A stretch of DNA of 55,996 nucleotides from a virus (lineage: Duplodnaviria > Heunggongvirae > Uroviricota > Caudoviricetes). Positions 39,001 through 42,000 of this stretch are shown one piece after another. The stretch is from IMG/VR virus record IMGVR_UViG_2880361019_000001, one strand, 5' to 3'. Position 1 is the stretch's first letter. Each line of letters starts with the position of its first letter. Position numbers: made by a program.

Positions 39001-42000
39001 TACAGCTTTGCGAAGCTTACAGGAATTCAAGCTGTTTCTGCGTAAAAAAGCAAGCTTTTTTTATCGAAATGAATCGTGCATAGGTACATAAAGCATGTGT
39101 TCAGCCACGGCTAACCAACCTGCAATACGTTTCTCACATGTGCTGAAACACCATTCCGGGTGAGTACGATTTAAACATTCTGCCATTTTTCTCTTACTCA
39201 TTCCCCGTCCTTCGTACCTTTGCCGGAGAATATTGATTAGCCCGGGATATTCCCCAAGCACCTCACTGATAACGCGATCAATAATCAACGCCTCTGTGTC
39301 TGTACAATGTGACAACCAGCTCTTCTGCTTCCCTCTGGTCATATCCCGAAAAAATGCCTCAAGTTCCGGTTTTTCCAGCCCGGATTTCTTCATGCTGCGT
39401 AAAACCTCATTAACTGCTGTTTTCGTCAGCCTTTTCGAAACCAGTAACCGGTTAAACATATTTCCGGATTTACCCCCACCGATATACGACCACCGCCCCC
39501 ACATCCGTAATTTCCCCTGGATCCAGACTGCTTCCAGCGTGTTCAGGCGTAAATGTTCGCCGCTTTTGCCTGTAATTTCCGGATATATCATATTTACGCT
39601 CACTCACTCTCAATTTTGTAAATCTTCACACCCAGCCGTCCACCAGATACTGGCTGACCACGTACAATATTGATTTCATCAAACTGCTCGTCATCAATGA
39701 GCACTCCCGCATGCGTCAGCGCATCCAGCGGTGCTTTCAGAATATTGTCCAGGTCACGACGACGCTTATCCGGTGGCTCTGCAATAATTTTTATTGCCAG
39801 CCGTCCGGACAGGCTTAATTTCAGTCGCTGCTGGCGAACAATAAGCGCCACTGCCCGGCGATAACGCTCCCCGGCTTTTGATACAAAATATGTGCTGCCA
39901 CGGCGTCGCCAGTAAGTGTTCACCGTCGGCGGGTAAGGTAAAACCAAATCTATGAGCATCAGTCACCTCTTTTACCCGAGCACGCCAGTCGCAAAGGCGT
40001 GATCAAGAAAACGAAAAATTAACTCAATCTGAGAGCCGTACTTTTTCTCAAACTCCAGCGGGTCTGCATGAAGTTCGTTGTGGTGCTCCCGGCACAACGG
40101 TAACGTGAAAATATCGTGGGCCTTTGTCCCCATTCCCCCCTGACCATGACCAATCAGGTGATGCGGATCGTCAGCAGGCTTACCACAACACGCACACGGC
40201 TGTGTCTTTACCCAGCGCGTGTATTTCTCGTTAACCCAGCGGCGACGTTTAGGTCGTTTCATGAAAGATTCCGGAGACTCAGGATCAACGGCAATGCTGA
40301 CCACCGTCTTTTCCTGTGGTGGGTTCTGTTGCTGGTGGGCGTGAGGCAGCGGCGCAAGATTTTTTGTGCGCTGCTTCAGTATGCTGGTGGCGGTCTGCTC
40401 TCCCGGTACGATGTCGCTTTCACGGTACACTGAGCGGATTTTTTCCGCACGCAACCCCAGCGAACGACGTAATACCGCTTCCGGTAGCGCGTCCGCTACC
40501 TGATTGCGGACCGCCCACCAGGATAATTCAGCCAGAGATAATTCACGCTCCTGCGTACCGCTTATTGCGTGACCGATGACGTCAATCATCCATGCTGACA
40601 GGTTTTGATGAGCAAGTTGCCCGAGTGATTCGGATGTCTGGTCACGCAGCTGGTTGTCGCAGTGCCAGCACAACACCATTGCGCCGGTACCATAACGGTG
40701 AATAACGGTTTCACTGTGATGATAATCGCCGTGTGGCCACTGGCAGGATTTAACATGGCGCAGTAACCAGTCAGACAATGCGCCAGCGCCACCAGCAGCA
40801 CGAATCACCCGTGCGTTACTGAAAAACGGCAGCAATGTTTTGTCTTCCACTAGCGGCTGGCGAACGGCAGGAACAACCCCGGACGGCAGATTACGCATGC
40901 TTTTCGGTTCCGGCTCCACCAGTACCCGGGTATTGTGGAATACCGGCATGGATTCACGGCCCGGCTTAACGATCACCAGCCCGAGTTCCGGTACCAGAAC
41001 AGGTCGAAGTAATACCCGCACGTTACCTCCAGATGCGTTGCTGGAATGTGCGGGACGGACGCGGCGGGCGTTCGGAATAAAGGAGCCTGACGTAGATTAT
41101 CCAGTGACGGTAGTCGAGGCTAAGGGCTTTCTTAAACTCATACCCACGTCTGCGGTAGTTATGAATCAGCCATTCGGCCTGTTCTTCAGTGCAGGGATCG
41201 TGCTGATACCAGTCATATTTGAATGTGTGAGAACACCGCCCTTGCCTGCTGGCAGGGGCGATATCAGAATTGTGATGTTTGGTATTGTGCGCCATCGGTT
41301 TTCTCTGCTGGCGCAGCAGGTGCCAGTTGTTCAAGCTGGCGTGCGGCAATATTGTCTCTGATTTCTGTTGTCGTCAACAGGCAACGTGCTATCATCGAAT
41401 GGTGTTCTATCCTACTCCGTGAGGTTTACCATGCGTACAACCCAACAATTCAGCATTACATTAACTAACGAAATGGCTGACATGGTGCGCGCCCGTGTGG
41501 CTTCCGGTGCCTATGCTTCAGAAAGCGAGGTCATTCGTGAAGGGCTTCGCGCACTGAATGAGCGCGATAAAGCAATCGAAGCGTGGTTAACGCATTCAGC
41601 CGCCCCCTCTCTTGATTCTATCCGCGAAAACCCAAACAACGGACGCTCCATTTCACAGGTTCGCGCCGCGATTCGATCCGGGAAGTAATCTGCATGACAT
41701 ATGAAGTCATCATTACTCCTGAGGCCGAAGAACAAATAATCAACCTGCACAGATATATAACGGAGAAAGCAGGGAACGTCATTGCTGACAATTTTGCCAA
41801 TGCGCTTCTTGATTATCTTGATGGGTTTTCTACATTCCCGCATCGGGGCAATAAACGCGATGATATTCGCCAGGGGATGCGGGTAACTCATTTCCGCCAC
41901 AGAACGATTATTGCTTTTGCCGTTGATGGCAGAAAAGTCTTTATTGTCGGTATCTATCATGGTGGGCAAAGTTATGAAACCGATTTCTTATAAACTTTTA

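Follow-up and report, generated by a model that had tools for sequence, protein, structure and literature searches.

The PaaR-PaaA-ParE systems combine a small antitoxin without a ribbon-helix-helix (RHH) fold, PaaA, with a separate regulator, PaaR. ParD/ParE modules have been solved structurally from Mesorhizobium opportunistum (5CEG/6X0A), Caulobacter (ParD1–ParE1, 3KXE), V. cholerae (ParD2–ParE2, 7R5A), M. tuberculosis (ParDE1, 8C24) and P. aeruginosa (ParDE, 6XRW). Here we describe a parDE locus in a 55,996-nt virus record (IMGVR_UViG_2880361019_000001), the whole of which we call the window. Like the solved modules, this locus has its antitoxin gene first, an RHH antitoxin with a C-terminal tail, and a toxin modelled with a ParE fold (TM 0.76–0.80). 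RefSeq and PHROGs already cover the family, this gene pair and its occurrence in Stx-type phages, and a literature search found no functional or experimental study of this ParDE pair. We read the locus, with a probability of about 85%, as a self-contained ParD/ParE-family type II toxin–antitoxin (TA) operon, carried as an exchangeable moron between the nin-like block and the Ead/Ea22–replication block and acting, by analogy, as its relatives do.

A ParD/ParE gene pair

parD (41431–41688, plus strand; stop TAA at 41686–41688) encodes an 85-aa RHH antitoxin and is preceded by a Shine-Dalgarno sequence, GAGG, at 41421–41424. The protein scores 32.1 bits against PF03693 (curated Pfam cut-off 21) and 53.8 bits against TIGR02606 (NCBIfam cut-off 46.2), and it matches phrog_6494 in PHROGs at E = 1.7e-56. 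RefSeq holds the identical protein as WP_001260977.1, named 'ParD family antitoxin'. Its PDB sequence matches are the ParD antitoxins 3kxe_C, 7r5a, 8c24 and 6x0a. The protein also resembles the RHH of NikR weakly. A single-sequence structure model reaches pLDDT 88–96 over residues 11–50, showing an extended N-terminus followed by two helices, and falls to 54–65 over residues 56–85 in the C-terminal tail. The RHH core of this model finds its best PDB matches in ParD/PrpA RHH domains at an rmsd of 1.0–1.6 Å, with Foldseek E-values (0.16–0.38) that are weak because the domain is small. As modelled, ParD has an N-terminal ribbon-helix-helix DNA-binding domain.

parE (41694–41993, plus strand) encodes a 99-aa ParE-class toxin. 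PF05016 matches residues 5–94 of 99 with 40.4 bits (curated cut-off 23), the PHROGs match is phrog_5232, 'toxin' (E = 2.4e-42), and the identical RefSeq protein, WP_000220596.1, is named a RelE/ParE family toxin. The sole significant PDB sequence match, 6x0a_A, is a ParE; comparison with K-12 RelE gave E = 2.6, with no detectable sequence similarity. The AF2 model (pLDDT 84.6) has the topology beta-alpha-alpha-beta-beta-beta, with elements E4–7, H9–26, H28–46, E62–67, E71–78 and E81–89, and no helix past the last strand. Foldseek ranks 1–23 in the PDB are ParE-class toxins only (TM 0.71–0.80), whereas the RNase toxins RelE, YoeB, HigB and YafQ rank later (TM 0.45–0.65). In the model, then, the toxin fold is of the ParE type, nearer to ParE than to the RNase members of the RelE/ParE superfamily. 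Homologues of this ParE form a subfamily of 207 representative clusters at E ≤ 1e-10. Across homologues with identities as low as 49%, twenty positions do not vary, and the loop motif P-x-RGN-x-RDD-x-R-x-G-x-R-x-T is among them.

Together, the two genes have the layout of a type II TA operon: small, co-oriented and adjacent, with the antitoxin first. The gap from the parD stop to the parE ATG (41694) is 5 nt (tctgc), not the 6 nt counted in the earlier note; in homologous loci the two genes are separated by 0–6 nt or overlap by 4 nt. In 22 of 23 loci drawn from gamma-, beta-, alpha- and deltaproteobacteria, the gene immediately preceding the toxin homologue encodes a homologue of this ParD. 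The earlier note had called an RHH antitoxin and a ParE-like toxin at this site and proposed HMM searches for both families as a check; both proteins score above the curated cut-offs, and the PHROGs and structural matches agree with the calls. Judged by HMM cut-offs, PHROGs E-values and the recurrent pairing, the parDE observation is far beyond chance. A minus-strand ORF of 152 aa (41511–41969) covers parts of both genes; it lies opposite the conserved parD and parE frames, is unannotated in the identical RefSeq region, and was read as a shadow ORF.

Predicted control elements and cassette boundaries

Upstream of parD, a consensus scan picked out a promoter-like sigma-70 site, TTGTCG-16 nt-TATCAT (41368–41395, plus strand), with a TG two bases ahead of the -10 hexamer. 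Taken by itself, the scan does not exceed the chance level (3 sites, with 1.9 expected). The extended -10, TGCTA, is invariant in the E. coli, Salmonella, Yersinia, Enterobacter, Erwinia and Izhakiella loci, and we predict an extended -10 promoter for the parDE cassette. Overlapping the -35 region, a purpose-written script detected the inverted repeat CTGTTG-tcgt-CAACAG (41365–41380), a candidate regulator site. The TCGTCAA core of this repeat is invariant in seven enteric-clade loci, and the Desulfovibrio locus carries a related sequence, GTTGTCAAC. A second promoter-like site, at 41997–42024, was set aside with no credible ORF downstream.

Directly past the -10 box lies an operator-like element, ATGGTGTTCTATCCTAC (41399–41415), which is a degenerate version of the subfamily's palindrome, GTAGGATTAAATCCTAC. 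The perfect 17-nt palindrome occurs once, at the operator-like position, in six distant loci (Paraburkholderia, Pantoea, Winslowiella). The window copy differs from it by six mismatches and is degenerate in its left half; the right half, ATCCTAC, is shared by 17 of 22 loci, 21–31 nt ahead of the parD start. An operator-like palindrome upstream of parD is thus conserved across proteobacterial classes and is a candidate ParD site.

Past parE, the 41990–42115 region folds as RNA at -35.1 kcal/mol (z = -2.8 against shuffles). The fold places a 7-bp hairpin without a U tract in the 3' untranslated region (42030–42056, plus strand) and, beginning about 80 nt past the parE stop, an intrinsic terminator, AAA-GATCCCGGC...GTCGGGATC-TTTTTT (42075–42111), with a GC-rich stem of 9 bp followed by U6. 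The minimum-energy and the centroid fold both show a 12-bp stem here, with the A and T tracts read from the sequence. The loop is too long for the limit of a simple terminator scan, which therefore overlooked the hairpin; the sole candidate of that scan, at 41915–41934, lies inside parE with just three G-C pairs and was disregarded. The strong hairpin-U6 bears out the downstream terminator of the earlier note, but it lies outside the 41431–41993 span given there for the module. Set between convergent parE and a minus-strand gene ending at 42199, the terminator is probably bidirectional. An Rfam search of 41200–42400 at E ≤ 1 returned no match, and so no known sRNA or antisense RNA lies in the module.

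Homology breakpoints delimit a swappable cargo cassette of 886 bp (41313–42198, plus strand) that contains the whole parDE module and no third ORF. Homology to a prophage carrying rem-hokD stops at 41312 and restarts at 42199 with 99% identity, and homology to K-12 Qin likewise stops at 41312. On the left the cassette is bordered by the promoter-like region; on the right its limit is the convergent gene's stop codon, and the terminator lies within. That terminator also falls inside the stretch shared by the window and phage ArgO145, 41348–42297. In the same slot, other prophages carry rem-hokD, and K-12 Qin carries relBE in addition.

Direct annotation of the neighbours with Pfam placed Q-like DUF1133, RusA and DUF968, the genes of the nin-like block, on one flank of parDE; the opposite flank has Ead/Ea22 and replication genes. 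The minus strand carries every neighbour between 39061 and 47446. Among complete E. coli genomes, the best match spans 72% of 31000–55900 at 94% identity. The setting is a lambdoid E. coli prophage, and the module runs against phage early-right transcription. Three further statements of the earlier note hold up in this setting: transcription against the surrounding phage genes, a position at the nin-like region, and autonomous moron cargo. By its sequence features, parDE is an autonomous phage moron, with its own predicted promoter and terminator, on the opposite strand, and swapped between conserved flanks. As a TA moron whose boundaries are defined, it offers a clean example of cargo in a prophage slot where TA genes have repeatedly accumulated.

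Distribution, proposed action and alternatives

Of 5426 complete E. coli genomes, 328 contain the parDE pair, as does Escherichia phage ArgO145; two E. coli genomes share the 771-nt module at 100% identity. Beyond lambdoid prophages, homologues sit in a Yersinia tail-gene cluster, an Enterobacter integrase/IS island and Paraburkholderia non-phage chromosomal loci. Among the complete E. coli genomes, 328 carry parE, each matching at least 80% of the 284-nt parE query, and 365 carry parD; none has parE without parD. In 37 E. coli genomes and 45 Stx-phage records, parD is an orphan, and a stub of 7 codons is all that remains of parE. A toxin never found without its antitoxin, next to an antitoxin sometimes found alone, is the pattern that a harmful toxin predicts. 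The orphan ParD differs from this ParD by 13 amino acids, all in residues 49–85. One match of 3174 aa in an exhaustive protein search was discarded as spurious: it is a repetitive surface protein, and its GIAFSSDGAKMFVVG repeat imitates IIAFAVDGRKVFIVG in the toxin.

How the module may work can be modelled on Caulobacter ParDE1, V. cholerae ParDE2, M. tuberculosis ParDE1/2 and P. aeruginosa ParDE. On these precedents, ParD would dimerise through its N-terminal ribbon-helix-helix and repress its own promoter by binding the conserved palindrome-like site across the transcription start, while its flexible C-terminal half (residues ~50–85) would wrap around ParE and neutralise it. Once ParD synthesis stopped, protease-labile ParD would decay and leave ParE free; free ParE would then poison DNA gyrase, blocking replication and inducing SOS. 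The trigger could be loss or replacement of the prophage, as in addiction or in rivalry among prophages, or an infecting phage that shuts off the host, as in abortive infection. From the same relatives we infer the toxicity of ParE, its gyrase target and its biological role; prophage stabilisation or abortive infection as that role is speculation. Among the structural neighbours of the ParE fold, PrpT and PfiT have been connected with the replication of plasmids or the production of prophages, and are not established as classical gyrase poisons. Because of these links, gyrase is not certain to be the target.

The toxin might instead be a RelE-type, ribosome-dependent mRNA endonuclease that is paired with a ParD-type antitoxin and does not poison gyrase. 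PF05016 and the RefSeq name both span the whole RelE/ParE superfamily, antitoxin–toxin partner swapping is known within it, and relBE occupies the same prophage slot in K-12 Qin. Still, with ParE-class proteins as the 23 best structural matches, RelE, YoeB, HigB and YafQ at clearly lower TM, no helix after the last strand of the model, and a ParE as the only significant PDB sequence match (K-12 RelE, E = 2.6), we regard an endonuclease of this kind as very improbable. Nor does it seem credible that the locus is a decaying, non-functional relic passively carried along by the prophage, even though degenerate TA loci are common in prophages and parD also occurs in orphan form. Neither ORF is truncated, coverage of the parE query holds at 80% or more in all 328 parE genomes, and the 20 invariant toxin positions, loop motif included, persist in homologues down to 49% identity; the predicted promoter, Shine-Dalgarno sequence and terminator are likewise intact.

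An unlikely but more substantial alternative is that the ParE-fold protein is weak, non-lethal or not directed at gyrase, and that the pair mainly regulates the prophage, for example its induction or phage yield, instead of serving as a killing module. PfiT/PfiA of Pf4 reportedly regulates prophage induction or phage yield, and the toxin has both PfiT and PrpT close to it in structure. The module is also antisense to the early-right operon, so phage read-through on induction would collide with it. PMC6368863 describes a chromosomal P. aeruginosa ParE as protecting cells against anti-gyrase antibiotics, a further point in favour of a non-lethal role. Against such a role, the toxin never occurs without the antitoxin whereas the antitoxin often occurs alone, which suggests that free toxin is costly. 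The same cassette also turns up in the Yersinia, Enterobacter and Paraburkholderia contexts named above, and such unrelated surroundings disfavour a phage-specific regulatory job.

Starting from the TA operon that we prefer, a broader reading can be sketched, which we offer tentatively and consider doubtful. An addiction/anti-addiction contest between lambdoid prophages may have left its trace in the cassette and in the derivatives that lack the toxin. Prophages carrying parDE would make it costly to lose or replace them. Stx2a phages of the PA2/VT2phi_272 type would have retained only the promoter and an orphan ParD, with an identical RHH and a diverged toxin-binding half. On phage invasion, this orphan ParD would neutralise a resident ParE or a ParE-based defence of the host. 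As a separate point, the conserved 17-bp palindrome GTAGGATTAAATCCTAC would be the operator, so far undescribed, of the ParD subfamily. The orphan ParD of many Stx2a phages and the conserved candidate operator provide simple, testable hypotheses on prophage competition in pathogenic E. coli.

Comparison with known systems

Unlike the solved ParDE modules, the present pair is carried by lambdoid prophages and Stx phages, its toxin is just 14–25% identical to solved ParE-class chains, and it forms a subfamily of its own with a distinctive conserved upstream palindrome. PADLOC-DB 2.0 contains no defence family that matches ParD or ParE at E ≤ 0.01. Phage ArgO145 has the same pair, with ParD 100% and ParE 97% identical to the window pair. 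Its cassette is close to int and the anti-repressor, at the opposite end of the early region, whereas the window cassette lies by DUF968.

The relBE-hokD-rem genes of K-12 Qin occupy the same slot, beside the pair of a hypothetical gene and DUF968 (ydfU), and are TA cargo too. They are unrelated to parDE, comprising a RelE RNase and a type I Hok toxin, and they lie on the phage-gene strand, whereas parDE in the window is on the opposite strand. The PaaR-PaaA-ParE systems of E. coli O157:H7 prophages (5CW7/5CZF) likewise have a prophage-borne ParE-fold toxin, to which the ParE model aligns at TM 0.77–0.79. Membership in that group was considered and rejected: unlike those systems, the cassette consists of two genes only, and its antitoxin is an RHH ParD that would combine both jobs.

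ParD and ParE reading frames and families

The module is encoded on the + strand, and its two frames can be read directly from the sequence. parD begins at ATG 41431, with a Shine-Dalgarno GAGG at 41421–41424, and runs for 85 codons to a TAA at 41686–41688; parE begins at ATG 41694 and runs for 99 codons to 41993. The gap between the parD stop and the parE ATG is 5 nt (tctgc), not 6 nt as the earlier note had it. A mechanical ORF list carries the parD frame further upstream, to TTG 41368, and RefSeq annotation of an identical region starts it at ATG 41431. The record of ArgO145, an Stx2a phage with the same pair, uses a shorter start. 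That choice would cost the ribbon-helix-helix (RHH) its N-terminal strand, which makes 41431 the more plausible start.

The HMM searches for ParE and ParD families that the earlier note proposed matched both proteins above cut-offs, and its reading of an RHH antitoxin and a ParE-like toxin stands. ParD scores 32.1 bits against Pfam ParD_antitoxin (cut-off 21; residues 6–51) and 53.8 bits against NCBIfam TIGR02606, 'type II toxin-antitoxin system ParD family antitoxin' (cut-off 46.2; residues 8–51), and its full length falls in a PHROGs 'antitoxin' family (E = 1.7e-56). Its top sequence matches among solved structures are Caulobacter ParD1 (3KXE), V. cholerae ParD2 (7B22/7R5A), M. tuberculosis ParD1 (8C24), and a Mesorhizobium antitoxin. 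In a single-sequence model, residues 11–50 are confident (pLDDT 88–96) and form two helices after an extended N-terminus, and residues 56–85 are of low confidence (pLDDT 54–65). The closest structures by Foldseek are RHH domains of ParD/PrpA antitoxins (rmsd 1.0–1.6 Å, 31–35% identity), with the weak E-values expected of a domain of ~50 residues.

Pfam ParE_toxin aligns with ParE along its length at 40.4 bits (cut-off 23), and the protein belongs to a PHROGs 'toxin' family (E = 2.4e-42); its sole sequence match among solved structures is Mesorhizobium opportunistum ParE (6X0A). An AlphaFold2 model built from 22 homologues (mean pLDDT 84.6) comprises a strand, two long helices and a three-stranded sheet, without a helix after the last strand. 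Against the PDB, ranks 1–23 are all ParE-class toxins (TM 0.71–0.80, normalised to the query), including those of Mesorhizobium and P. aeruginosa, PfiT, V. cholerae ParE2, M. tuberculosis ParE1/2, PrpT, E. coli O157 ParE2, and Caulobacter ParE1. A RelE-like RNase is the disfavoured alternative: RelE, HigB2, YoeB, and YafQ rank below the ParE class, at TM 0.45–0.65, and no similarity to K-12 RelE was detectable in the ParE sequence. By sequence and model, we assign the toxin to the ParE branch rather than the RNase branch.

Predicted promoter, candidate operators and terminator

A consensus scan predicts a promoter at 41368–41395 (+), with TTGTCG, 16 nt, and TATCAT, and TG before the -10; the scan alone is not above chance (three sites found, 1.9 expected). 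We aligned the sequence upstream of parD from E. coli, Salmonella, two Yersinia, Enterobacter, Erwinia, and Izhakiella. The toxin proteins of these loci are only 59–80% identical, yet four upstream blocks are invariant: TCGTCAA in the -35 region, TGCTA at the extended -10, AT.GT.TT..ATCCTA.T, and TGAG at the Shine-Dalgarno. Because these blocks fall exactly at its elements despite the toxin divergence, the alignment supports the predicted promoter.

In distant loci of this ParD subfamily (Paraburkholderia, Polynucleobacter, Pantoea, Winslowiella, Scandinavium, Buttiauxella, a Bordetella MAG, and Desulfovibrio), a 17-bp palindrome, GTAGGATT-A/T-AATCCTAC, lies 20–40 nt 5′ of parD in perfect or nearly perfect form, and no other alignable sequence is shared upstream of the gene. 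Six loci each contain the exact 17-mer a single time, at that same position (2686–2702 in L014–L017, 2684–2700 in L020, and 2682–2698 in L022), and its right half is retained in 17 of 22. The window copy (41399–41415) keeps the right half intact (ATCCTAC, 41409–41415) and has a degenerate left half (41399–41406). A second inverted repeat, CTGTTG-tcgt-CAACAG (41365–41380), overlaps the -35. We infer that both elements, lying over the promoter and transcription start, are candidate ParD operators, the 17-bp palindrome being the likely operator.

The terminator noted earlier downstream of the pair is recovered by RNA folding of 41990–42115 (-35.1 kcal/mol, z = -2.8). Its hairpin (42075–42108) has a 12-bp stem with a GC-rich, AAA-flanked core, followed by U6 to 42111. 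Positioned between convergent parE and a − strand gene ending at 42199, it looks usable from either side. Across 41200–42400, Rfam returned no family match.

Prophage setting and the exchangeable cassette

Pfam annotation of the window's own ORFs places all neighbours on the − strand. On one side lie DUF1133/antiterminator-Q-like (39061–39591), RusA (39600–39959), DUF968 (39972–41021), and a small protein without a family match (41023–41295); beyond parD and parE follow a 171-aa protein without a family match (42199–42714), Ead/Ea22-like (43159–43794), then DUF1627, an IstB/DnaC-like protein, and an HTH_36 replication-initiator-like protein. A prophage 98% identical across 39001–42331 is annotated consistently in RefSeq, with cro/cI-like genes further out on one side and genes for lysis and terminase on the opposite side. 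The module therefore lies where the nin-like block of a lambdoid prophage meets its accessory/replication block, and it points against early-right transcription, in line with the opposite-strand orientation first described.

A further gene of this prophage bears the name of a 'toxin' family, a YdaT_toxin-family ORF (47021–47446, −; PF06254, E = 2.8e-10) adjoining cro-like and replication genes. Rfam hits above the gathering score are the sRNA STnc100, three tRNAs encoded downstream of the Q-like region, and, in the immunity-left region, the antisense RNA DicF (in that order, 36885–37057 (−), 37137–37383 (−), and 50768–50819 (+)). In a closely related annotated prophage (L001, 4768–9122), TerB-family and DUF3927 genes, by that prophage's annotation, occupy the position where Stx phages have stx, after the tRNAs and before the SASA/NanS-p esterase; the window counterpart runs from 37424–38209 (−) to 34897–36747 (−).

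Against a prophage of strain AVS0753 whose flanking genes are shared but whose cargo is rem and hokD, homology stops at 41312 and resumes at 42199 at 99% identity. This slot, next to the 'hypothetical + DUF968 (ydfU)' pair, thus spans 41313–42198 in the window, with equivalents at 1820–3050 in the AVS0753 locus (L005; rem-hokD) and 4369–5590 in K-12 Qin (L004; rem, hokD, relE, relB). In ArgO145 the module (41348–42297) is 96.6% identical and sits at a different place, near int, flanked by an anti-repressor gene and Ead/Ea22-like genes. A homologue of the window ParD (37–100% identity) lies just upstream of the toxin homologue in 22 of 23 loci, the exception being a toxin fragment only; directly 5′ placement is seen in Yersinia, Enterobacter, Erwinia, and Desulfovibrio, with contexts including a Yersinia tail-gene cluster, an Enterobacter integrase/IS island, and an Erwinia lambdoid prophage. 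These comparisons indicate that parDE is a mobile, self-contained cassette and that toxin-antitoxin cargo tends to collect in this slot, in keeping with the autonomous moron proposed earlier.

The Yersinia prophage locus (L006, 3738–5848) holds parDE within the tail-gene cluster (Phage_tube to tape measure), adjoining a second ParD-family ORF and a YafO-toxin-family ORF in a small TA cluster. The window prophage (31000–55900) is a mosaic with no full counterpart among 5426 complete E. coli genomes, of which the closest covers 72% of it at 94% identity. The parDE module, in contrast, is found at 100% identity in two genomes.

Orphan antitoxins, function and known systems

Among these 5426 genomes, parE occurs in 328, always chromosomal and with at least 80% of the 284-nt query covered, and parD in 365; the 37 extra carry a parD variant 80–90% identical. 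In the phage collection, four records hold the pair and 45 parD only, including PA2, VT2phi_272, Stx2a_F765, phi346/349, and many Stx2a phages. These 45 Stx-phage records and 37 genomes keep the promoter and parD (86% identical; 80–90% among genomes), whereas parE is truncated to a 7-codon stub, MAYEVPH*, with a lipoprotein-like ORF and a HigA-like HTH gene in its place. In PA2 (L003, 2418–3478; window 41348–41707), homology takes in parD with its promoter and goes on for 14 nt into parE, where it ends. Window and orphan ParD differ at 13 amino acids, all in residues 49–85; the RHH (residues 1–48) is identical. 'Orphan ParD and HigA antitoxins' were likewise noted in EHEC phages in 2025, their role left open (PMC12502783).

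The toxin has been lost alone in some genomes and phages and the antitoxin alone never, a pattern expected if free ParE is harmful and, as such, indirect evidence of toxicity. Less probably, the toxin may have the ParE fold but act mildly or as a regulator, in the manner of PfiT or PrpT, both of which are among its 23 closest structures. That parDE is a dead remnant is disfavoured by the upstream blocks conserved across genera, by 20 toxin positions that stay invariant among homologues as distant as 49% identity, and by the coverage of at least 80% of the query in all 328 parE genomes.

By analogy with characterised ParDE systems, ParD dimers would occupy the operator and repress the parDE operon, and the ParD tail would neutralise ParE; once ParD synthesis stopped and ParD was degraded, ParE would poison gyrase. 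Two roles are possible: prophage stabilisation or competition against incoming lambdoid phages on the one hand, and abortive infection on the other. PADLOC models matched neither protein, and we found no functional study of this pair in the literature.

The pair is real and was correctly read from the outset. It is also already known, both as a type of module and from existing annotation of the pair itself: RefSeq names the identical proteins 'type II toxin-antitoxin system ParD family antitoxin' and 'RelE/ParE family toxin', the ArgO145 record annotates toxin and antitoxin, and the subfamily is sizeable, with 1136 representative clusters at E <= 0.001 (207 at E <= 1e-10). To this our analysis makes modest additions: the exact cassette boundaries, a recurrent TA slot, an orphan-antitoxin derivative, and a conserved candidate operator.
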